A DNA stretch of 64,000 nucleotides from Candidatus Gorgyraea atricola (GTDB taxonomy: Bacteria; Omnitrophota; Gorgyraeia; Gorgyraeales; Gorgyraeaceae), in assembly GCA_030765235.1 (NCBI GenBank), contig JAVCCW010000010.1, forward strand, positions 94,907 through 158,906. The letters run 5' to 3'. Both the position numbers and the translations under genes were made by a program. Below, piece by piece: positions 3,644 to 55,450 of this stretch. Position 1 is the stretch's first letter. Every line of letters starts with the position of its first letter. The notes below the pieces were generated by a model. The model was not told the origin of the DNA. It was given only the letters and a program-made list of their open reading frames with translations, and searched no databases.

Positions 3644-3768
3644 GTGGAGGTTACGAAGGTTTCGGAAGGTTTCGGAATGTTGCGGAAGGTTGTCAAAAAG
3701 TTTGAAATCCATAGCTGTTGTAACCTTTCGTAACCTTCTCTAACATTCCGTAACATTCCGTAACCTCC
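3644..3768. repeat. Family B palindromic repeat (ggaggttacgaaggtt...aaccttcgtaacctcc)
   Basis: Long imperfect inverted repeat of acgaaggtt/tcggaa words; other copies at 22313-22420, 36058-36187, 53203-53272; half copy at 12013-12060. Confidence 0.9.
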
Positions 3769-16893: not shown

Positions 16894-17018
16894 AAAATCC
16901 CAAATCCCAATAATACCAATACTACCAAATAAATCCCAATTTCAAAATCCCAAACATGTGTTGGGGTTTGGGATTTTGGATTTATTTGGGATTTGGTAGT
17001 ATTTGGATTTGGGATTTA
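16894..17018. repeat. Family A palindromic repeat copy
   Basis: Near-identical to 586-705 and 18210-18334. Confidence 0.9.
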
Positions 17019-17022
17019 TATT

Positions 17023-18183
17023 TCATTTCCCCATCCCAATCCCCTGCGCTCTTTGCAGGAGTTTTCCTTCTGTCTTAATGGATGGGGCTATTATTATTTC
17101 GGTCAATTGCATTTCTTTTATATCTCTCGCGCCGACATTTCCCATCGAGGTCATTAGCGCGCCTACAAGATTTTGTGAACCATCATCGAGCTTTGCGGGG
17201 CCAAGTAAGATCTCTTCTAATGTCCCGGTCGTGCCCACGCGGATCCGCGTACCTCTGGGCAGGTTTGCATGCGGTGTGGCCATGCCCCAATGATATCCTT
17301 TTCCTGGCGCCTCTTGCGCCCTGGCAAACGCGGAGCCGACCATCACAGCATCTGCGCCGCTGGCAAAGGCCTTGCAGGTATCTCCGCCTGAATCCATGCC
17401 GCCGTCTGTAATAATCGGTATATATTTTCCTGTCTTCTTATGATAAAAATCTCGCGCTGCTGATGTATCTGAAGTAGCTGTGACCTGCGGTACACCTATG
17501 CCAAGGACGCCTCTTGTGGTGCACGCCGCGCCAGGCCCGATGCCGACCAGGATCGCGCTAGCCCCAGCCTCCATCAGCTCAAGCGCAACAGAATACGTAA
17601 CGCAGTTGCCCAATATAACAGGGATCTTCATCGATTTTATGAACTTGGCAAGATCAACTACTTTATATTCCTTAGACATATGATGCACACTTATCACTGT
17701 AGACTGGACTACAAATATGTCTGCGCCTGCATCCTGCGCAAGCTTACCAAAACGCTCTGCAGTCTGCGGAATCGTACTTACAGCCGCGGTCGCGTTCTTT
17801 TTCTTTATTTCCTTTATCCTCTTTGTAATGAGCTTTTCTTTTATAGGTTTAACATAAAGGGATTGCACGAGCTTTGTGGCCTCTTGCGGGCTTGCCTTTG
17901 CTATTTTTTTAAGTATCTCGTCAGGATTCTCATAACGGGTCTGCACGCCGTCCAGGTTTAAAACAGCCACGCCGCCGAGCTTACTCATCTCTACAGCAAA
18001 CTTCACATCCACCACGCCATCCATTGCAGCAGCAAGTATGGGTATCCTGTATTTCTTGCCTGCCAGCTCCCAACTTGTATCTACCTCGTTAGGATTTATC
18101 GTAACAGAACCAGGTACAAGAGCTATCTCATCAAATCCATAACACCTTCGCGCCTTTCTCCCTCTTCCAACCCACATACCCAT
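17023..18183 (-). CDS. IMP dehydrogenase-family protein without CBS pair (GuaB3-like)
   Basis: TIM-barrel IMPDH motifs (FDEIALVPG, ILAAAMDGV, GIGPGAACTTR). Start set to MGMWVGRG, which is preceded by AAAGGAGG. Confidence 0.65.
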   Translation of the reverse strand: MGMWVGRGRKARRCYGFDEIALVPGSVTINPNEVDTSWELAGKKYRIPILAAAMDGVVDVKFAVEMSKLGGVAVLNLDGVQTRYENPDEILKKIAKASPQEATKLVQSLYVKPIKEKLITKRIKEIKKKNATAAVSTIPQTAERFGKLAQDAGADIFVVQSTVISVHHMSKEYKVVDLAKFIKSMKIPVILGNCVTYSVALELMEAGASAILVGIGPGAACTTRGVLGIGVPQVTATSDTSAARDFYHKKTGKYIPIITDGGMDSGGDTCKAFASGADAVMVGSAFARAQEAPGKGYHWGMATPHANLPRGTRIRVGTTGTLEEILLGPAKLDDGSQNLVGALMTSMGNVGARDIKEMQLTEIIIAPSIKTEGKLLQRAQGIGMGK

Positions 18184-18209
18184 CCTAGTACCTCCTTTTG
18201 AAATACGCA

Positions 18210-18334
18210 AAAATCCCAAATCCCAATAATACCAATACTACCAAATAAATCCCAATTTCAAAATCCCAAACATGTGTTGGGATTTGGGATTTTGGATTTA
18301 TTTGGGATTTGGTAGTATTTGGATTTTGGATTTT
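18210..18334. repeat. Family A palindromic repeat copy
   Basis: Near-identical to 16894-17018. Confidence 0.9.
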
Positions 18335-18394: not shown

Positions 18395-20014
18395 TCAAGT
18401 CTTCGGTATCAGCAATACGTCTAACAGCAGCGCCTTAAATGCTATATTCTTCCAGAAATGCTTCCCTTGATCCCTCCCTAAAACAACATCCTTGACCCCA
18501 TGAAAAAATCCCAGGTTCTGCTGCGAATGTTCCTTAGAGATATTATGCGCGGAAAAACGGGCTTCTAAAAAACCTTCTGTTATATCATGCATGGGTTTTG
18601 GATTATCTGATAAAATAGCCCCTACAGATTCAAGGAACTCCCTTGCCGCAATATAGTCAAATTTAGAAGCGCCATATATCTTAAAACCCCTGCATAGAAT
18701 GCCATAGATCTCCTTTATAAATTCCTTTGGATCCTTGATCGCTAATTCCTGCAAACGTTTGCTTCTCATAAACATGTACACAGTAAAAAATAAAAGCCCT
18801 AAAACCACAAGCCACAAAACGCTAATAGATGAGTAATATAAAGGGCCTTTTTTCTTTATTGGTATTAGAGGGGGCAATATCTCAATGTACAGATCATTGC
18901 TAAATGTCCCGAGATAAGACGCAGATACATGCACGCTTCCTTCTTCTTTTGGCTTGAGATTCCCTTGATTATTTATTGATACCTCTGTGCTGCCGCTGGT
19001 CACCCAGTCAACAAGCTTTGTTACTGTAAGAGTAGAGTCATCGCTCATGGTCAATTCCGCTTCAAGTCTAACTTGCTTACCAAGGGGGACCTTATCCGCA
19101 TTTGAGTATATTGTAAGAGCCTTTATCTCAAAAATATCTATTTCCTTATTAAATCCTTCTGCGCGAAAACGCTGCTCGATCGCCTTTTTGGCCTTTCCTT
19201 CTGTCTCTTGTATTAATTCCTCTTGTCTTATCCTTACGCCCTGAGTTTCCCTCTTTTTCTTTATGGCATCTACGAGCTGTTCTTTTTTCCTTTTTTTATT
19301 GTCTTTTAGCTCTTTCGGCGCCTGATGCAATAACTTTAAAAGCGGGATCTTCTCGGGGATCCCTAAAAGCGTAGAGGGCAGTCCCTTTAAAGATAGATTC
19401 TCAAAACGCGGGACAAAGGGATAGACTAGAGACGCGACTATTAAAACAAAAGAAAACATCATTGCAGCCACTTTTATTTGCTGCCATAAACTCATTATCT
19501 TTTCCTGATCCCCCACTATAAGAGAGCCCTTGTTCTTTTTTTCGCATACCAGACTCAAACGCATCGCAAAGATAAAGATAAACAAAAAAACCGCAAGCAT
19601 GACCATATAAACTGGTTCCTGTTCCAGGGCAAGAGAAATGGATGAGATCAAAAGACACACTGCTATAAATTGCAACATAGCATAACTTTTTTCTTCTTTC
19701 AGGCCAAAACTTTGAAAAAGCGTAAGCCATGCCAGGGCTATAGAAAAACCCGTCAGAAGATTATCAAATGTCAAGGCCTTGTCAAAAAGGCCTCCCAATG
19801 TCACGACCACTGCTGCAAGAGACAGCATCCCTATAAAGGTATCTATATGCTGGGGTCTGGATTTTCTGATCCGCCAGCTTACAAGAAAACCTGCGATCGT
19901 ACCAGGTATCAGGAGCGCAGCGACAAAAGGATTTATGATCCCCTGGATGCTAAAAAGTCCTATCAGGACTATCCCCAGATTTGAAAAGTGAAAATATAAC
20001 GCGTCTCTGTCCAC
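18395..20014 (-). CDS. TgpA-like membrane protein (DUF3488 N-terminal TM region, Big_2-like domain, C-terminal DUF4129)
   Basis: Multi-TM N-terminus; C-terminal YIAAREFLESVG..EARFSAH resembles DUF4129; third gene of the MoxR-DUF58-TgpA operon. Confidence 0.55.
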   Translation of the reverse strand: MDRDALYFHFSNLGIVLIGLFSIQGIINPFVAALLIPGTIAGFLVSWRIRKSRPQHIDTFIGMLSLAAVVVTLGGLFDKALTFDNLLTGFSIALAWLTLFQSFGLKEEKSYAMLQFIAVCLLISSISLALEQEPVYMVMLAVFLFIFIFAMRLSLVCEKKNKGSLIVGDQEKIMSLWQQIKVAAMMFSFVLIVASLVYPFVPRFENLSLKGLPSTLLGIPEKIPLLKLLHQAPKELKDNKKRKKEQLVDAIKKKRETQGVRIRQEELIQETEGKAKKAIEQRFRAEGFNKEIDIFEIKALTIYSNADKVPLGKQVRLEAELTMSDDSTLTVTKLVDWVTSGSTEVSINNQGNLKPKEEGSVHVSASYLGTFSNDLYIEILPPLIPIKKKGPLYYSSISVLWLVVLGLLFFTVYMFMRSKRLQELAIKDPKEFIKEIYGILCRGFKIYGASKFDYIAAREFLESVGAILSDNPKPMHDITEGFLEARFSAHNISKEHSQQNLGFFHGVKDVVLGRDQGKHFWKNIAFKALLLDVLLIPKT

Positions 20015-20040
20015 GATCCTTATCCTTAATAACTCGTTGG

Positions 20041-20106
20041 TGTAAAGTGCAAAGTGTCAAGTGTCAGGGCCCTTTTGACACCTGACACCTAAAACCTGAC
20101 ACCAGC
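20041..20106. repeat. Family C palindromic repeat (gtgtcaagtgtcagg...cctgacacctgacacc)
   Basis: Other copies at 41376-41446, 45502-45531/45907-45944, 49389-49421; variant at 42903-42968. Confidence 0.85.
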
Positions 20107-22312: not shown

Positions 22313-22420
22313 AGCGAAGGTTTCGTAAGGTTGTGTGAGGTTTCGTTAGGTTGCGTAAGGTTACATTATTGCAACTTCACGAAACATTACGAAACTTTAC
22401 GCAACTTCACGCAACCTCCA
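22313..22420. repeat. Family B palindromic repeat copy
   Basis: gcgaaggtttcgtaaggtt...cgcaacttcacgcaacctcc. Confidence 0.85.
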
Positions 22421-22592: not shown

Positions 22593-24345
<1,753 letters not shown>

Positions 24346-27462: not shown

Positions 27463-27700
27463 AAAAAACTCTTAATCCATTATAGTGGATTAAGAGTTGC
27501 ACCCTGTTTTCTTCACCCTTTATGACTGCCCTCAGCAGCTCCCTGTTATAGGGAAAAATATATTGTAAGGTTTTCTGACTTAAGGCCGTCTACTCTCTGC
27601 GCCTTCTCGTCCGCCCAAAGCGAACAATGGCTTATTGCAGATTTCGTAACCTATTACAGCAGCGGGGCTGCGCTGGACTCCCACCAGCTTCCCTTAAACA
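27463..27700 (-). promoter_or_regulatory. cobalamin (B12) riboswitch with terminator expression platform
   Basis: Minus strand AAGGGAAGCTGGTGGGAGTCCAGCGCAGCCCCGCTGCTGTAATAGG matches the AAGGGAA..GGTG..A.TCC..GC.G.CCCGC..CTGTAA core; GAAGGC further on. Terminator aactcttaatccactataatggattaagagtttttt at 27463-27499. Candidate promoter TTGACT-17-TATAAA at about 27740-27770. Confidence 0.75.
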
Positions 27701-27771
27701 ACATAATATGAAATATTCAATTGTAAATATTTTATACCCTAATTACTAAAACAAGTCAACAAAAAAATACC

Positions 27772-29552: not shown

Positions 29553-30279
29553 AGAATATCTTGTTTAGTTCTTCGATAGCCAATATGATTCGCGGGCCTG
29601 GTCTTAAAAGGGTATCTGGATTAAAATCCGCATCTTTTGAAAAACTCGTCTTTATAATAATATCCGGATCCCTGTACAATAAAACCTCAGGGCTAAAAAG
29701 GCCATTGTCATCCTTTACATCCTGAGCTATATTATTACCACCTGCCAACCTCACAACATCTCCGATAAACGACGAACCAGTAACAAGCGGATCGTGAAAT
29801 AACTGTACAAAAACCTTGGGTCTATCTGCACCCTTTTTTACTGGTAGATTTTCTATGCGGGTCTTCATATCCTCTATGATAAAGCGGGCCTTATCTTCCC
29901 TATTAAATATCTTGCCAAGCATCAGCATCCTTCCGTGTAGCTCATCCATGCTTTTAGGTGACACCTTTATAATCTTCGCACCCCTTAGCCTTAAATAATC
30001 CATTAGATCAGCATCAAGATCAGCATTCACCAGGATATGGCTTGGCCTTAATAAAATTATCTTTTCTATATTTGGCCTATTAAAACTTCCGACGCGCTCT
30101 ATATCCAGGGCCTTTCTCGGATAATCTGAATACTCATCCACACCTACTACTGACTCGCCAAGTTCGAGGCTAAACAATATCTCCGTAGTATTCGGCGCCA
30201 GAGAAATTATGCGATATTCCCGAGCCATAGCCATGGATGCAATTAATAAAAATAGGCATAAAAATATTATCTTTTTCAA
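29539..30279 (-). CDS. periplasmic substrate-binding protein (BtuF-like, cobalamin/heme class)
   Basis: Signal peptide; RIISLAPNTTEILFSLELGESVVGVDEYSDYP typical of PF01497 binding proteins. Confidence 0.8.
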   Translation of the reverse strand: MKKIIFLCLFLLIASMAMAREYRIISLAPNTTEILFSLELGESVVGVDEYSDYPRKALDIERVGSFNRPNIEKIILLRPSHILVNADLDADLMDYLRLRGAKIIKVSPKSMDELHGRMLMLGKIFNREDKARFIIEDMKTRIENLPVKKGADRPKVFVQLFHDPLVTGSSFIGDVVRLAGGNNIAQDVKDDNGLFSPEVLLYRDPDIIIKTSFSKDADFNPDTLLRPGPRIILAIEELNKIFYEKN

Positions 30280-30800
30280 TACTCTATTCCTTTCCTCGCG
30301 CCAACCTTAGATCTAAAAGGATGTTTTTTATCTATCATTGCCGTCACATAATCCGCATGCTCTTCTATGCCAGAGATATCCCCTCTACCTGTAAGCACCA
30401 ACTCAAGTTCCTGTGGTACACTTTTTAATAATTTGAGGAATTTTTCCTTACTGAAAAACCCTTGATCTATAACATTTATAACTTCATCCAACACCACCAT
30501 GCCATACTTCTTGCTAAACATTACCTTTTCTGCTTCTTTGACCATTCTCTCGATAGCCTTTTTCACCTTCCCTTGTCCCTTGTCACTTGTCACTTGTCCC
30601 ATAAATAAAGGGTGACATTCCTCGCACTTCACAACCTCTATGCTTAACTCCTTAGCCGAAATCTCTTCCCCGCAAACCAGTTTCTCAGGCTTAAAAAACT
30701 GGAACACGCAGACCTTAAGTCCCTGGCCGCTCGCCCTCATTGCCAGGCCAAAGGCCGAAGTAGTCTTGCCTTTTCCATTTCCAGTATAAATATGTATCAT
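30276..30800 (-). CDS. cobO: cob(I)yrinic acid a,c-diamide adenosyltransferase (CobO/BtuR)
   Basis: MIHIYTGNGKGKTTSAFGLAMRA P-loop start typical of CobA/CobO; contains in-frame (cttgtc)-heptamer tract at 30570-30600. Confidence 0.85.
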   Translation of the reverse strand: MIHIYTGNGKGKTTSAFGLAMRASGQGLKVCVFQFFKPEKLVCGEEISAKELSIEVVKCEECHPLFMGQVTSDKGQGKVKKAIERMVKEAEKVMFSKKYGMVVLDEVINVIDQGFFSKEKFLKLLKSVPQELELVLTGRGDISGIEEHADYVTAMIDKKHPFRSKVGARKGIEY

Positions 30801-30821: not shown

Positions 30822-30957
30822 TTAGAAACTCTAAACACTAAACTCTAAATCCTAAACAAACTCAAAACACAAAACTCAAATGCCAAAACTGCAGTTTTGA
30901 GTTTTGGATTTGGGGTTTTGGATTTGTTTAGAGTTTAGGGTTTCGAATTTAGAGTTT
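30822..30957. repeat. Family F palindromic repeat (aaactctaaa.../...gttttggatttggggttttgg, centre ctgcag)
   Basis: Imperfect inverted repeat; right arm shares words with family A. Confidence 0.8.
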
Positions 30958-36057: not shown

Positions 36058-36187
36058 ACGTGGAGGTTACGTAAAGTTACGGAAGGTTTCGGAATGTTGC
36101 GTAAGGTTGTATTAAGAGCGTTGGAATCCATCGCTCTTGTAACCTTCGGTAACCTTCTCTAACATTCCGTAACCTTCGTAACCTCCA
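36058..36187. repeat. Family B palindromic repeat copy
   Basis: tggaggttacgtaaagttacggaagg...ccttcgtaacctcca. Confidence 0.9.
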
Positions 36188-41375: not shown

Positions 41376-41446
41376 AGTGTCAGGTTTTAGGTGTCAAGTG
41401 TCAAGGAGCTAAAATCCCTGACACCTTTCACCTGACACTTGACACC
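41376..41446. repeat. Family C palindromic repeat copy
   Basis: agtgtcaggttttaggtgtcaagtgtcaagg...cctgacacttgacacc. Confidence 0.85.
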
Positions 41447-42885: not shown

Positions 42886-42902
42886 CTCCGGTCTCTCCTT
42901 CT

Positions 42903-42968
42903 GTGTAATGTGTAAAGTGTAAGGTGTAATGTAATTGGGGTAGCTTGGTACATTACACATTACACAAC
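42903..42968. repeat. Family C variant palindrome (gtgtaatgtgtaaagtgtaagg...cattacacattacac)
   Basis: Imperfect inverted repeat between recA and htrA. Confidence 0.75.
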
Positions 42969-44253: not shown

Positions 44254-45507
44254 TTGCATATAATAAGACCTATGGAAATATCCTCGCATGTAATATGCAT
44301 TGGCAATGAAATTATGCTTGGCCATATTAATAACACAAATGCCCAGCATATTTCAGAGAAACTCTCCTCTATTGGCATAAAGACTGCAAAGCATCTGTCC
44401 ATTCCTGACGTTCCAAAGGTTATTATTAATTCAATAAAAAATAGTCTAGCCGATGCTAATATCGTTATAGTTACAGGTGGTCTTGGTCCTACTGTGGATG
44501 ACCTGACGCTTGACTGCATCGGAAAGGCACTGGATAGAAAACTCATCTTTAAAGACAGGGTTGCAAACCATATAAGGCAGCATTTTAAAAATCGTAAGTT
44601 AAAGATGCCAAAAAATAACCTGCGCCAGGCACTTATACCTGAAGGGGCAACCCCAATACTAAACAATATAGGCAGCGCCCCAGGCCTTATAATCCAGACA
44701 AAAGGAAAAGTCCTTATTGCATTACCAGGTGTGCCTTTTGAAATGCATGCCATGATAAAAGATACTGTGCTGGGCTTTCTTAAAAAGAGATTCTCTCCAG
44801 GCAGGCTAATAAAATCCCGCGTAATAAAAATAACAGGGCTTCCAGAGTCAAAGGTGAATGAAAAGATCGAGGACATATTGAAGCTGGGTGGCAATGTCCA
44901 GATGGGTATCTACCCTCACCCCGAAGAGATCACAGTAAAGATAACTGTGACTGACAAAAAGGCTGACGCTACAATAAAAAAGATCGAGAGAAAGATAAAA
45001 TCACGGCTGGGAAACTACATATTCGGCTATGATGAAGAGAAATTAGAAGAAGTTGTTGGCAAGCTGCTCTTAAAAAAGAAAAAAACCTTAGCAGTCGCAG
45101 AATCCTGCACAGCCGGACTTTTGGCGAGTAGAATCACAGACGTTTCTGGAAGTTCAAGGTATTTCAAGATGGGTGTAGTTACTTACAGTAATCAAGCTAA
45201 GAATAAACTTCTATATGTGCCTAAAGATACGATAAAACAACACGGCGCTGTCTCCAAACAAGTAGCAAGCGCAATGGCCAAAAACATGCGGCTATTAGCT
45301 GACGCAAGCATAGGAATCGGTATAAGCGGCATTGCAGGTCCAACCGGCGGCACCAAGAAAAAACCAGTAGGCCTAGTCTACATCGCGCTCTCAACAAAGA
45401 AAAAGACCATTTGCAAAGAATTCCGCTTCCTGGGCCAGCGAAATATCATAAAGTTTAAAGCCACTCAAGCAGCCCTTAACCTGGTGAGGCTTCATGGGCT
45501 TGTGTAA
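44254..45507 (+). CDS. cinA: competence/damage-inducible protein CinA (MoCF-binding + PncC deamidase domains)
   Basis: 417 aa; N-terminal VICIGNEIMLGHINNTNAQ..VIVTGGLGPTVDD. Confidence 0.9.
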   Translation: MHIIRPMEISSHVICIGNEIMLGHINNTNAQHISEKLSSIGIKTAKHLSIPDVPKVIINSIKNSLADANIVIVTGGLGPTVDDLTLDCIGKALDRKLIFKDRVANHIRQHFKNRKLKMPKNNLRQALIPEGATPILNNIGSAPGLIIQTKGKVLIALPGVPFEMHAMIKDTVLGFLKKRFSPGRLIKSRVIKITGLPESKVNEKIEDILKLGGNVQMGIYPHPEEITVKITVTDKKADATIKKIERKIKSRLGNYIFGYDEEKLEEVVGKLLLKKKKTLAVAESCTAGLLASRITDVSGSSRYFKMGVVTYSNQAKNKLLYVPKDTIKQHGAVSKQVASAMAKNMRLLADASIGIGISGIAGPTGGTKKKPVGLVYIALSTKKKTICKEFRFLGQRNIIKFKATQAALNLVRLHGLV

Positions 45508-45538
45508 AGTGTCAAGTGTCAGGTGTCAAGGAGGATAA

Positions 45539-45908
45539 AGTGAGAAATTACAGGTTTGATTTCGAGAAATTAGATGTGTATGAGAAAACGTTAGATTTTG
45601 CAAATAAGGTTTTTAATATTACCAAGAAATTTGATAGAGAAATTCAATATTCACTTGGAGACCAATTTCGTAGAGCCTCTCTATCTATATGTAATAATAT
45701 CGCTGAGGGCAGCGGTAGACCCAGTCAAAACGCAAAAAGACAATTTTACGGCTACGCCTTAGATTCAGCCAGAGAATGTATACCAATGATAACGTTAAGC
45801 CAAATGCAGAATCAAATTACTAAACAAGATGAAGAAGCATTAAGAGACGAATGTATAAGTATCTGTAATATGACTGGCAAGCTAAAAATGTCAACAAAGC
45901 ATCCCTGA
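45539..45908 (+). CDS. four-helix-bundle protein (23S-rRNA-intervening-sequence protein family)
   Basis: ..YRFDFEKLDVYEKTLDF..SICNNIAEGSGR.. pattern. Start placed at GTG 45539 after AAGGAGG (ORF track starts at an upstream GTG inside the repeat). Gene bracketed by inverted family C copies. Confidence 0.7.
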
Positions 45909-45944
45909 CGCATTGACACTTAACACCTGACACCTGACACTAAC

Positions 45945-46502
45945 ATGCAAACTATCCGAGCATTTGTTGCAGTTGAAATCGACCAGCCAAATAAACAAAA
46001 GCTTTCCCAAGTCATCTCTACTCTCAAGCAAGCAAACGCAGACGTAAAATGGGTCAATAAAATCCAGATGCACCTGACACTAAAGTTTCTGGGAAATATT
46101 GAAGAAAATCGCATCAAAGAAATCTCAGACACACTTAAGTCTATTGCAGATAACTTTAGCGCCTTCAACATCCACCTCTCTAAAATCGGCGCATTCCCAA
46201 ACATGCATAAACCAAGAGTCATCTGGCTTGGAATTGACAAGGGCGCACAAGACTTAAAAAACCTAGCTTCTCAGCTCGAAAAACTCGGCCCCAAAGAAGA
46301 AAAGCGTGAGTATAAAGCTCATCTCACGCTAGGCAGGGTCAAATCCTTAAAAAACATCTCTCAACTAACAAAACTTATAAACGAAACCCCCTTTCAATCC
46401 CAAGGCAACATCCCCATCACCAAACTAATCCTCTTCCAAAGCACCCTCACGCCTAAAGGTGCAATCTACTCACCCCTGACAACATTAGCTTTAAAACAAT
46501 AA
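45945..46502 (+). CDS. thpR: RNA 2',3'-cyclic phosphodiesterase (2H family, ThpR/LigT)
   Basis: Two H-x-T-x motifs (HLTLKFLG, HLTLGRV). Confidence 0.85.
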   Translation: MQTIRAFVAVEIDQPNKQKLSQVISTLKQANADVKWVNKIQMHLTLKFLGNIEENRIKEISDTLKSIADNFSAFNIHLSKIGAFPNMHKPRVIWLGIDKGAQDLKNLASQLEKLGPKEEKREYKAHLTLGRVKSLKNISQLTKLINETPFQSQGNIPITKLILFQSTLTPKGAIYSPLTTLALKQ

Positions 46503-46504
46503 AA

Positions 46505-46765
46505 TCATCTATAAATCTCTCTTCTATGACCCAGGTCAATGATGTATACGATAAGCCGATTTTTATGAACTGTATATATCACACGGTAACTTCCTACGCG
46601 CAATGAATAGTCGCCTGAAAGTTTACCTTTAAGGCTTTTAGCTTGATAGGGGTCTGTCTTTAGGGCTTCTATGGCAGAGATTAGGCGGGAATACAATTTT
46701 TTGTCTTCTTTGTAAACTTTTCGCAGTTCTTTTGCTGCTGAATTGGCAAATTCTATTTTATACAT
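46505..46765 (-). CDS. RelE/ParE-family type II toxin
   Basis: 86 aa; ..LRVGSYRVIYTVHKNRLIVYIIDLGHRREIY; overlaps antitoxin gene by 8 nt. Confidence 0.8.
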   Translation of the reverse strand: MYKIEFANSAAKELRKVYKEDKKLYSRLISAIEALKTDPYQAKSLKGKLSGDYSLRVGSYRVIYTVHKNRLIVYIIDLGHRREIYR

Positions 46766-47033
46766 CTTTCTCTATCTTTTGCCTCAGCTTAGCTAAGGAA
46801 ATAGTCTTGCCTTCCCCAATCTCCTTCTTTGCCTTTTTTATCCTTCGGGCAACGGTTTTATTAGAAAGAATTTGTATGGTCTCTAAGAGGCCTTCGTAAT
46901 CATCAGGGCTCATCATGATAGCTATAGGTTTTCCTCGCTTTGTGACAATATAGCGATCCAGCCTATCGTCAATATGCTTTATTACTTCTGGTAATTCTGG
47001 TCGTAGTTCTTTTAAGGTAATTGTGTTAACCAT
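46758..47033 (-). CDS. Phd/YefM-family antitoxin
   Basis: 91 aa; ..YIVTKRGKPIAIMMSPDDYEGLLETIQILSN. Confidence 0.8.
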   Translation of the reverse strand: MVNTITLKELRPELPEVIKHIDDRLDRYIVTKRGKPIAIMMSPDDYEGLLETIQILSNKTVARRIKKAKKEIGEGKTISLAKLRQKIEKDV

Positions 47034-50151: not shown

Positions 50152-50236
50152 ATCGTTTAGCCCGTTAGCCCGTTGCCCGTTAGCCCGTTGACCCATTAAC
50201 GGGCAAACGGGCTAAACGGGCAACGGGCTAAACGGA
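50152..50236. repeat. Family D palindromic repeat (cccgttagcccgttgcccgtt.../...aacgggcaacgggctaaacgg)
   Basis: Half copy at 52413-52452. Confidence 0.85.
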
Positions 50237-52411
50237 TTCGGAAGATTCTTCTTCCTTAATCTTGTATTCAGCTATCAGGATCTCTCTTGGCTTACTGCCT
50301 CTAAATGGGCCTACTATGCTTTCCTCTTCCATCGCGTCTATTAATCGCGCAGCCCTGGTGTAGCCCAGCCTGAGCCTGCGCTGCAGCATTGAAACAGAGG
50401 CCTGGCCTGTCTCAAGCACCATCTTTACTGCTTCGTCGAAAAACTCGTCCTTTTTAAAACCGCCTCGCCCAGACATGCTTTTTTTCTGCTGTTCAAGTAT
50501 TGCATCATCATAGATAGGATCTCTTTGTTCCTTTACTGAATTAACGACTTTTTCTATTTCAGCGTCTGTCAGGAGCGTACCTTGCGCGCGTACGGGCTTT
50601 GCGTTGCCAGGCTCTAAAAACAGCATATCGCCCTTGCCCAATAACTTATCCGCGCCATTCATATCTAAAACAGTCCTTGAATCCACTTTCGACGCCACTT
50701 TGAATGAGATCCTTGCTGGAAAATTCGCTTTTATTACACCTGTTACAACATCCACGGACGGCCGCTGCGTCGCGAGTATTATATGTATGCCCACTGCCCT
50801 TGAAAGCTGCGCGAGCCTCGTGATCGCATTCTCAACATCCTGCTGCGCTACTATCATAAGGTCTGCCAGCTCATCTATGATCACTACAAGATAAGGCATC
50901 TTTTCGCTGGATTTCTGGTTAAAGGCGTCTATGTTTCTCGCTACAGCCTTTGCAAGCTTCTTATATCTCACTTCCATCTCACTCACGACCCATTCAAGAA
51001 CGCCTGATGCCTTTTTTGAATCTGTAACCACAGGGCACAGAAGATGCGGCAGGCCATTATAGATAGCCAGCTCCACCATCTTTGGGTCCACCATTATGAA
51101 TTTCAATTCATCAGGCGTTGCATTATATATCATGCTCATTATCAAAGAATTCACGCACACAGTCTTGCCAGAGCCAGTAGTACCCGCGATCAAAAGATGC
51201 GGCATGTCGCCAAGATCTGCCACTACGCTCCTCCCAGCAATATCTTTTCCAAGCGCTATGGCAAGCTTTGAAGAGCCTGCCTGTTTCTGATATTCGCGAG
51301 ATTCAAGGATCTCTCTTAAGCCCACAAGGGATGTACTTTGATTCGGGACCTCTATGCCCACTGCTGATTTGCCCGGTATAGGGGCCACGATCCTGACTGT
51401 AGTCGCCTTCATAGTAAGCGCAATGTCATCACTTAAGGCTGTGATCTTATTCACCTTTACGCCAGGCGCTGGCTGCAGCTCGTACCTGGTAATAACAGGT
51501 CCCTTGTTTATCTCTACCACCTTTGCATCTATGCCAAAATCCTGCAAGGTATCCTCTAATACCCTGGCACTTCCTTCTAAATCCTCGCCCTTAATCTTCT
51601 CTGGCTCAGATGAAGGCATATTTAATAATTCCAAAGAAGGAAGCTTGTAGTCTCCGACTATCCTTGGTGTAAGTTTAACTGGTTTTTTAGGGGCAGGTTT
51701 TGGTTGAGCGAATATCTTAGGTTTTGGCAATACGATCCTCGGCGCAACTGGCCTCTCTACCTTTTTCTCTTCCTTGTCCCTTGTCCCTTGTCCCTTGTCC
51801 CTTGTCCCCAAGTTAACCGCCGGTCTCAACTTAGGCCTATCCTTAACCCTGACCCTCTTCTTGCTCGCCATCCCCGATATCAATTTCCATGCGCGGCCAA
51901 ATAAAAATGAAAAAATAGGTATAATCAAAAACTCTGTAGCAACCATGAGCGACAGGATAGCCAATGCAAGGGTTACTATGTATCCGCCGATCCCGCCAAA
52001 GTATCCAAGAATCTTGCTCGAAACAAAAAAACCAATAAGCCCGCCCCTCTCGACCGAAAGAACAGAATCTCCTGCGGCTGTAAGACTGAAGAACGCGCTG
52101 GCTGAGCTAAAAAGCAGCCCCAATCCTAAAAACCTGAACAAAGGTTTTTGTTCTAATCTTTCAGCGAGAATACCAATACCCCACGTGAAACACAAGAATG
52201 GAATAAGAAAACCCGCATAGCCCACTACCTTAAACACAAGCCACGCAAGATACGCGCCCACTATGCCAATATAATTTCTAACATGCAGATTCGGGGAGGA
52301 TGTTTCAAAGGAAATATCGTAAGGAGAGTAAGAAACCATTGCCGCCAGTAAAATCACTGCCAGCGCGAATAAGCTAAGCGAGATCAGTAAATCTTTCTTA
52401 TCTCTTGTCAT
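50228..52411 (-). CDS. ftsK: DNA translocase FtsK
   Basis: 727 aa; N-terminal TM helices, linker, motor domain with Walker A GTTGSGKT. Linker contains (cttgtcc)x4 heptamer tract at 51775-51805. Confidence 0.95.
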   Translation of the reverse strand: MTRDKKDLLISLSLFALAVILLAAMVSYSPYDISFETSSPNLHVRNYIGIVGAYLAWLVFKVVGYAGFLIPFLCFTWGIGILAERLEQKPLFRFLGLGLLFSSASAFFSLTAAGDSVLSVERGGLIGFFVSSKILGYFGGIGGYIVTLALAILSLMVATEFLIIPIFSFLFGRAWKLISGMASKKRVRVKDRPKLRPAVNLGTRDKGQGTRDKEEKKVERPVAPRIVLPKPKIFAQPKPAPKKPVKLTPRIVGDYKLPSLELLNMPSSEPEKIKGEDLEGSARVLEDTLQDFGIDAKVVEINKGPVITRYELQPAPGVKVNKITALSDDIALTMKATTVRIVAPIPGKSAVGIEVPNQSTSLVGLREILESREYQKQAGSSKLAIALGKDIAGRSVVADLGDMPHLLIAGTTGSGKTVCVNSLIMSMIYNATPDELKFIMVDPKMVELAIYNGLPHLLCPVVTDSKKASGVLEWVVSEMEVRYKKLAKAVARNIDAFNQKSSEKMPYLVVIIDELADLMIVAQQDVENAITRLAQLSRAVGIHIILATQRPSVDVVTGVIKANFPARISFKVASKVDSRTVLDMNGADKLLGKGDMLFLEPGNAKPVRAQGTLLTDAEIEKVVNSVKEQRDPIYDDAILEQQKKSMSGRGGFKKDEFFDEAVKMVLETGQASVSMLQRRLRLGYTRAARLIDAMEEESIVGPFRGSKPREILIAEYKIKEEESSESV

Positions 52412-52412
52412 T

Positions 52413-52452
52413 TTCCCGTTTCCCGTTAGCCCGTTGCCCGTTTAGCCCGTTA
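52413..52452. repeat. Family D half copy
   Basis: cccgtttcccgttagcccgttgcccgtttagcccgttac. Confidence 0.75.
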
Positions 52453-53202: not shown

Positions 53203-53272
53203 GAGGTTACGAAGGTTATGGAAGGTTATGTAACGTTCCATAACATTACGTAACATTCCATAACCTCCACGT
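53203..53272. repeat. Family B palindromic repeat copy (short)
   Basis: aagaggttacgaaggttatggaagg...cattccataacctcc. Confidence 0.85.
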
Positions 53273-55381: not shown

Positions 55382-55450
55382 AGCTTTCAGCCCTCAACTC
55401 TCAGCTCTCAGCCTTAAAAGCTGAAAGCTGACAGCTGATCGCTGAAAGCT
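55382..55450. repeat. Family E palindromic repeat (agctttcagccctcaactctcagc.../...gctgacagctgatcgctgaaagct)
   Basis: Imperfect inverted repeat between pnp and rpsO. Confidence 0.8.

Follow-up and report, generated by a model that had tools for sequence, protein, structure and literature searches.

Heptamer-array arms bracket a four-helix-bundle gene between cinA and thpR in Candidatus Gorgyraea atricola: a probable cassette of the rRNA intervening-sequence type in an mRNA operon

Positions 45502 to 45944 of the 64-kb stretch of Candidatus Gorgyraea atricola DNA analysed here (64,000 nucleotides in all, hereafter the window) hold a small gene for a four-helix-bundle (4HB) protein, bracketed by two inverted arrays of a seven-nucleotide repeat and lodged between cinA and thpR. 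We propose, with a probability of roughly 0.6, that this unit is a selfish cassette of the same type as the intervening sequences (IVSs) of rRNA genes, here resident in an mRNA operon. Statements about function rest on sequence throughout, and the host genome was sampled as the 64-kb window. The cassette and its immediate neighbours are composed as follows.

44254–45507, plus strand: cinA (Pfam CinA, MoCF_biosynth and CinA_KH; NCBIfam NF001813, 445 bits)
45502–45529, plus strand: left (5′) arm, four tandem heptamers GTGTAAA, GTGTCAA, GTGTCAG and GTGTCAA
45530–45534, plus strand: Shine-Dalgarno (SD) sequence GGAGG of the 4HB open reading frame (ORF), 5 nt upstream of its GTG start
45540–45908, plus strand: 4HB gene, 122 aa, 23S_rRNA_IVP / TIGR02436, GTG start and TGA stop
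45906–45940, plus strand: right (3′) arm, a degenerate TGACGCA followed by TTGACAC, TTAACAC, CTGACAC and CTGACAC
45941–45944, plus strand: TAAC spacer from the right arm to the thpR ATG
45945–46502, plus strand: thpR, RNA 2′,3′-cyclic phosphodiesterase (TIGR02258, 161.5 bits)

Each arm is a period-7 array, with 4.1 copies on the left and 3.9 on the right by Tandem Repeats Finder, and the unit consensus is GTGTCAR. The segments 45502–45529 and 45913–45940, 28 nt each, are inverted and 82% complementary; an alternative register (45508–45530/45919–45941) gives 23 nt at 91%. The whole cassette measures 443 nt, with 383 nt separating the arms. From shuffles, 0.66 occurrences of the double-heptamer pattern would be expected in the window, where 19 are present. 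These arms confirm the central statement of a first-pass annotation of this DNA, namely that the 4HB gene is bracketed by inverted copies of a repeat termed family C. Two of its finer statements stand only in part. The left copy was said to overlap the cinA stop codon and to supply the ribosome-binding site; the stop codon TAA (45505–45507) does lie inside the first left heptamer, but GGAGG abuts the last left heptamer and is outside the array. Likewise, the right copy was said to extend from the ORF stop to the thpR start; the stop TGA (45906–45908) does open the degenerate fifth unit of the right arm, but the string quoted is 34 nt long and ends at 45940. The same edges recur in two homologous cassettes described below, with GGAGG/GGGAGG at the matching position in loci L016 and L017 and TAAC 3′ of the right arm in L016.

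PF05635 is the sole Pfam match of the bracketed gene (99.5 bits, cut-off 33.8), together with TIGR02436 (92.1 bits, cut-off 24). The protein contains the R-x3-S-x3-N-x2-E core (R45, S49, N53 and E56), a motif as described in PMC3936711; in the alignment of homologues, S49 and N53 are invariant and R45 and E56 are at least 90% conserved. Its nearest relative of solved structure is XCC0516 (PDB 2GSC, E = 1.1e-8), and 319 homologues were retrieved at E ≤ 1e-10. No second 4HB copy was detected within the window by tblastn. No relatives were found in viral contigs and phage genomes, which yields no evidence of phage carriage.

The ThpR of the window is 100% identical to a protein that NCBI lists under Candidatus Gorgyraea atricola. 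Eight related genomes of the Omnitrophota (L002, L004, L006, L007 and L105–L108) served as the comparison set for the junction. All eight keep the gene order recA-cinA-thpR-pgpA and lack the 4HB gene, with CinA identities to the window of 89% in L002 and 84% in L007 and a ThpR identity of 81% in L105–L107. In L002 and L105–L107, four of the closest relatives, cinA and thpR overlap by ATGA, and in L004 and L006 the gap is a short spacer. Because the relatives lack the gene and can have cinA and thpR overlapping, the comparison shows what is evidently an insertion of a unit of ~440 nt, in agreement with the earlier view that the gene rides on an element placed between cinA and thpR. Both host genes bear the marks of this event. 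CinA ends in ...RLHGLV* in the window and in ...RLHL* in L002, the last residues and the stop codon being derived from the start of the insert. ThpR begins with MQT-IRAF compared with the ancestral MIRAF, the sequence 3′ of the last heptamer forming the new thpR start context.

The same region carries further structured or lineage-specific features. In L007 (5270–5320) and L108 (2450–2500) the cinA|thpR junction holds an unrelated 14-bp hairpin, CCTCGTAGGTTGCC-loop-GGCAACCTACGAGG, indicating that this junction has accepted structured inserts at least twice. A ParE/Phd toxin-antitoxin pair (46505–47033) lies between thpR and pgpA in the window and is absent from the syntenic loci of L002 and L105–L107, making it a second lineage-specific insertion beside the cassette. 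Contigs of three independent metagenome assemblies (L001, L014 and L015) match the window without a difference, the cassette included; all three terminate exactly at 44305 within cinA, where no obvious repeat is present.

The build of the cassette is not confined to this locus. The first seven independent homologue loci examined were all bracketed by inverted short-unit arrays. Examples are given below, with protein identity to the window protein, the genes on either side and the repeat unit.

Window cassette, reference: between cinA and thpR; GTGTCAR
L016, 84%: between a contig end upstream and a Laminin_G_3-domain gene; GTGTAAA / GTGTCAG
L017, 74%: between an ORF without Pfam match and one that matches an intein below threshold; GTGTCAC
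L018, 72%: between two ORFs truncated at the ends of the contig; GTGTYAC
L019, 64%: between a histidine kinase and a response regulator; 8-mers
L021, 65%: between two ketoacyl synthases; GTGTCAA / GTTTCAG
L023, 64%: between T2SS-E and T2SS-F of the type II secretion system; ATGTTTA

Arms of the family C type therefore do carry 4HB cargo elsewhere, with GTGTCAA/GTGTAAA-type arrays around the closest homologues from other genomic settings, L016, L021, L036 and L051.

A survey extended this comparison to 80 metagenome loci with 75 distinct 4HB ORFs. For each ORF, the best complementary alignment between the 110 nt upstream and the 110 nt downstream was scored, and an inverted-repeat score of at least 15 was counted as bracketed; ORF starts were set heuristically, which can hide arms (as in the Azospirillum IVS considered below). 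Bracketing was found for 46/75 ORFs overall and for 36/48 among the closer homologues; since the survey was seeded with Omnitrophota-like proteins, the overall 61% is a biased estimate for the PF05635 family as a whole. Among control ORFs of the surveyed loci, about 6 of 378 reached the same score once leaked duplicate 4HB genes had been removed, one further control match being PF05635 itself, and mismatched arm pairs had a median score of 7. The repeat period in the 46 bracketed cassettes is 7 nt in 36, 8 nt in 8 and 9 nt in 2, with a median arm of 31 nt (~4.3 units) and a median element of 461 nt. Units are varied and include GTGTCAA, ATGTTTA, GGTTTAA, CGCGTAA, GGGTAAA, CAGTTTA, TTGGTCA, CTCTGCT and the 9-mer AAGTTCATA, as well as GATTTGA in 12 copies and CGTCCGA in five perfect copies. 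An SD-like motif precedes 28 of the 46 ORFs. A role of the heptamers as stop signals in all reading frames was considered and rejected: all three frames are closed by only 18/46 left arms, and an arm closes 1.83 frames on average, barely more than the 1.61 of shuffles.

One surveyed contig (L099:700–1180) contains an ORF of 124 aa belonging to PF13366 (PD-(D/E)XK_3) between inverted CACAAAT-type arrays (score 18.5), which hints that a second small-protein family may use the same cassette build.

Arms and protein evidently form one evolving unit. The left arms of the 46 cassettes scored on average 20.4 with their own right arms and 8.9 with those of other cassettes, and the own partner was the best match in 24/46. 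Arm similarity follows protein identity (Mantel rho 0.55, p about 5e-4). Two cassettes of one contig can carry unrelated units (L049 and L079), indicating that the unit belongs to the cassette and not to the genome. Moreover, a single protein cluster at 60% identity comprises 31 cassettes in 22 distinct contexts, and orthologous sites hold several cassettes each, six at fabH|fabD and three at T2SS-E|T2SS-F. The units at these two sites have diverged while the arm pairs are still complementary; such compensatory change argues for selection on pairing. Collectively, these comparisons show that the ORF and its two arms, as read from sequence, travel and diverge together through many genomes and contexts.

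The orientation of the cassettes is also constrained. Relative to the cassette, 20 pairs of flanking ORFs read ++, one reads +-, one -+ and none --, so that with co-oriented neighbours the cassette lies in sense in 20/20 cases, for which the chance under random orientation is about 1e-6. The cassettes fit tightly between co-oriented genes, many of them linked in function, and leave only a few to a few tens of bases free at either end.

ORF-bearing IVSs of rRNA genes have been known since 1993, with examples in Leptospira, Coxiella burnetii and Azospirillum. In Azospirillum lipoferum 4B (replicon AZO_p2), we located a 4HB ORF inside a 23S rRNA gene (Rfam LSU_rRNA, L112:283–3330). This IVS is 469 nt long and its arms (36 nt, 86% complementary, 397 nt apart) are composed of GAGGACG/GATGACA heptamers. 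The link to 23S IVSs, which the first-pass annotation drew from the protein family, thus extends to the arms of a genuine IVS. The Coxiella IVS, 428–444 nt in length, has a 28-bp terminal stem, inside which RNase III cuts, and its ORF is preceded by three to four tandem GACAGAT heptamers (PMC4990558). The window cassette shares with these elements a PF05635 ORF in sense within the loop, an overall length (443 nt) in the range of ~430–470 nt, terminal inverted repeats long enough for a stem of ~20 bp or more (arms of 28 nt in the window) and arms made of tandem heptamers. It differs in its host, an mRNA operon instead of helix 25 or 45 of the 23S rRNA, in its unit (GTGTCAR) and in the strong SD of its ORF, whereas the Coxiella ORF has no functional SD. 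To judge from these likenesses, the cinA|thpR insert is built like a genuine rRNA IVS but placed in another host transcript. Rfam detected no rRNA in the window, gave no match at the cinA|thpR locus, and showed no rRNA context at 20 distant metagenome 4HB loci.

The heptamer-array build was also found in four of five copies on complete cyanobacterial plasmids, indicating that the cassette is not an assembly artefact:

Nostoc sp. C052 plasmid: GGGAACA x4 / TGTTCCC x7
N. punctiforme pNPUN02: GGAGTCA
Picosynechococcus PCC 7003 plasmid: GGAGATA, between cmr2 and cmr3
Calothrix NIES-22 plasmid: GGGTGTA x4

Based on these data, we propose a plausible mechanism for the persistence of the cassette in its operon. 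It would have no promoter of its own and depend on read-through transcription of the host operon, and its arms would pair in the transcript to give a stem of about 28–31 bp enclosing the ORF. The analogy of rRNA IVSs suggests that RNase III may act on this stem. Cutting there would set free a monocistronic 4HB mRNA with its own SD and limit the damage to the host transcript, and such processing could explain how the element is tolerated both in rRNA and in tightly packed operons. The arm edges would restore what the insertion takes away, that is, the cinA stop codon and the thpR start context. Our favoured guess is that the 4HB protein, putatively pentameric, binds its own heptamer arrays. Consistent with this scheme, the minimum-free-energy and centroid folds of the RNA from 45490 to 45955 (466 nt; z = -2.9) are both closed by a stem of the two arms, and no plus-strand promoter-like or terminator-like signal above background was found beside the 4HB ORF. 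An intrinsic terminator or a stabiliser of the 3′ end resembling repetitive extragenic palindromic (REP) sequences was rejected as an identity for the arms, there being no plus-strand terminator-like site, a distance of 383 nt between the arms and a start codon directly after them.

Several observations weigh against this proposal. Cleavage by RNase III is experimental for rRNA IVSs and for the window cassette an analogy only, and a search of the 64-kb window for the RNase III signature motif of rnc found none. Among arm mismatches on the sense strand, G-U outnumbers A-C by 65 to 39 (pooled p = 0.014; per-cassette sign test p = 0.2; arm composition skewed), an excess too weak to establish pairing at the RNA level over pairing at the DNA level. 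About 39% of the 4HB genes, mostly distant ones, have no arms within 110 nt, and one of the five cyanobacterial plasmid copies is without arrays. Moreover, no intermediate state with the hairpin alone or the ORF alone was found at the junction, the nearest ThpR relatives being 79–81% identical; insertion in a single step is therefore an argument from parsimony and not a proof. No recombinase or transposase was present at the cassette locus, and no target-site duplication above background was seen at 43 cassette ends (longest shared string 4.0 nt on average, compared with 3.4 nt for mismatched ends), which leaves mobility without a mechanism. With neither a target-site duplication nor a transposase, an insertion sequence or an element of the miniature inverted-repeat transposable element (MITE) type was rejected. 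Finally, array palindromes without cargo, built from other unit families, are abundant in the window and on a Nostoc plasmid, which suggests that the arrays, and not the ORF, may be the primary element.

This last point underlies the alternative in which the hairpin came first: the array palindromes would be independent REP- or MITE-like elements, and the 4HB gene a secondary passenger that landed in the loop of one of them or was captured there, so that the arms would be part of the hairpin and not of the gene. In numbers, cargo-less palindromes far exceed cargo-bearing ones, with at least 15 from several unit families in the window compared with one 4HB gene, and many on plasmid pC052_D compared with one cassette. 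The bracketed PD-(D/E)XK_3 ORF of L099 indicates that cargo is not unique to the 4HB family, and the different hairpin in L007 and L108 fits a junction open to such elements. Against this stand the arm similarity that follows that of the protein, the different units of adjacent cassettes on one contig, and the single protein clade found with related units in 22 contexts. In addition, SD site and stop codon are both tied in with the arm edges, and no mechanism is known for placing a 370-nt ORF precisely into loops. We consider this order of events unlikely.

Three of the cargo-less palindromes in the window are of family C or related to it:

20040–20103, no strand assigned: family C hairpin without cargo, 4+4 heptamers around an 8-nt loop
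41376–41446, no strand assigned: family C hairpin without cargo, loop GGAGCTAAAATCCC
42902–42966, no strand assigned: variant hairpin of GTGTAAx units, related to family C

The loop of the hairpin at 41376–41446 is similar to the cassette's inner edges (GGAGGATAAAG ... ATCCC), with an equal alignment score in both orientations, and is only suggestive of a cassette that has lost its ORF. Two cargo-less hairpins of the cassette's own unit are also present in L021, while most loci with 4–10 kb of flanking sequence have none.

Such copies would be expected if the 4HB protein and the arrays formed a partnership comparable to that of REPINs, hairpins of paired REP sequences, with the REP-associated tyrosine transposases (RAYTs). 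The 4HB protein would recognise its cognate arrays, with about one pentamer subunit per heptamer, and maintain or spread them, cargo-less hairpins being non-autonomous derivatives. The layout is that of RAYT genes between inverted REPs, and the three hairpins in the window and the two in L021 would be the derivatives; the loop at 41376–41446 could be read as fused inner edges of a cassette. The cassette-specific units that co-diverge with the protein are also in line with recognition, and ~4.3 units per arm fits the homopentamer reported for XCC0516 (Lin et al. 2006, as cited in PMC4990558). Nevertheless, neither catalysis nor recombinase activity is known for a four-helix bundle, a same-unit cargo-less copy is missing from most of the loci with flanks, the loop matches the inner edges equally well in either orientation, and co-divergence is also expected under simple co-inheritance. 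We therefore regard an active partnership as doubtful in its own right; it is compatible with an IVS-type cassette and does not exclude one. The earlier label 'REP-like' is apt as an analogy, given a single gene between inverted short repeats, dispersed cargo-less palindromes and a lineage-specific repeat in both systems. It does not hold literally: the arms are tandem heptamer arrays and not REPs, and the gene encodes a small four-helix bundle and not a RAYT, that is, a Y1/HUH transposase.

A function at the DNA level is improbable; in this view the arrays would not make an RNA stem but serve as operator-like autoregulatory sites or, during replication, as cruciforms or single-strand hairpins. 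Complementarity fits pairing of DNA equally well, the G-U excess being weak, and tandem repeats are typical of protein-binding arrays. On the other hand, the strict sense orientation (20 ++ versus 0 --) points to a role in the transcript, and so do the copies within rRNA, whose stem is known to undergo processing as RNA (PMC4990558).

The possibility that the 4HB gene is an ordinary resident with chance or low-complexity flanks, or an accessory (Avd) gene of a diversity-generating retroelement (DGR) as PF05635 membership would allow, can be set aside as highly improbable, given the 19 double-heptamer patterns where 0.66 are expected, the absence of the gene from 8/8 related junctions, and a neighbourhood of cinA, thpR, parE, phd and pgpA without a reverse transcriptase or template/variable repeats, where synteny with L107 places phospholipid and radical-SAM genes next (CDP-OH_P_transf, radical SAM/TRAM and RodZ). 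Avd proteins share with the window protein the PF05635 superfamily, and are small, basic, pentameric four-helix bundles that act with nucleic acid. No Avd genes are known to lie between heptamer arrays.

Repeats of this kind have been described before in other settings. The short tandemly repeated repetitive (STRR) sequences of cyanobacteria are intergenic heptamer tandem repeats. Inverted pairs of GGGAATC heptamers occur in Xanthomonas and GGGGAYT arrays in Nostoc (PMC4692102), and TAACTGA heptamer arrays in Beggiatoaceae, cyanobacteria and Bacteroidetes (PMC4679880). These resemble the window arrays as intergenic tandem units, often in convergent inverted pairs able to form stem-loops, in phyla rich in PF05635; unlike the window arrays, which bracket a PF05635 gene, neither report links them to that family. 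PF05635 genes have in turn been reported wedged between cas genes (PMC3936711), and also in insertions of 16S and 23S rRNA genes of the Candidate Phyla Radiation (CPR). Full-text searches, whose coverage left out most subscription journals, found no literature that ties PF05635 genes generally to inverted heptamer arrays or that equates rRNA IVSs with operon-embedded copies as one cassette.

These parallels permit a broader, decidedly tentative idea. PF05635 genes with their cognate inverted arrays might constitute a widespread and unrecognised class of selfish cassettes in rRNA genes, cas operons and housekeeping operons of at least four phyla; a pentamer would recognise its own ~five heptamers, and ORF-less derivatives might be the source of STRR-type repeats, of the Xanthomonas GGGAATC pairs and of the palindromes in the window. 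The locus and the survey together point to the rRNA IVS as one habitat of a more general cassette. The diagnostic build (inverted arrays of ~four heptamers, an SD, the ORF, sense orientation and tight insertion in an operon) provides a simple sequence rule for its recognition. Some PF05635 genes 'associated' with CRISPR-cas loci, such as the copy between cmr2 and cmr3, may accordingly be insertions and not functional partners, and heptamer-repeat palindromes repeatedly described without explanation would gain a possible origin.

The other array palindromes of the window consist of tandem 7–10-nt units followed by their inverted complement over a short loop, and lie in gaps between co-directional genes. 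They were located at 593–704, 3655–3766, 16895–17017, 18211–18333, 22317–22415, 24266–24326, 30826–30957, 36064–36184, 50157–50235, 53204–53264 and 55382–55450, with the unit families TTTGGGA, AGGTTACGGA-type 10-mers, AAACTCA, GCCCGTTA and AGCTCTC. An IMPDH-like gene (17023–18219) lies between two complete TTTGGGA-family hairpins. The gene ftsK (50228–52411, minus strand) is flanked by GCCCGTTA-family arrays, a complete hairpin at 50157–50235 and a solo arm at 52412–52452; the flanking arms are 36 nt long, 89% complementary and 2174 nt apart. Near-perfect tandem arrays also occur within coding sequence, with CCTTGTC x5.3 at 100% identity within ftsK (51772–51808) and TCCCTTG x4.6 at 30569–30600 within the ORF 30276–30800. 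On the Nostoc sp. C052 plasmid pC052_D (L116, 196000–245000), the many palindromes are of the 8-mers GCAGAGGA / CCCCTCTG with loops of ~20–30 nt, at least one pair (18456–18540) falling within the annotated mobF coding sequence; the single 4HB cassette of that stretch has a different unit, CAGGGAA.

The window has two further structured elements. Nested intergenic inverted repeats, with 56-nt arms (13263–13318/13351–13406) inside 29-nt arms (13203–13231/13433–13461), have no Rfam match. A cobalamin riboswitch (Rfam RF00174, 87 bits) is located at 27548–27743 on the minus strand.

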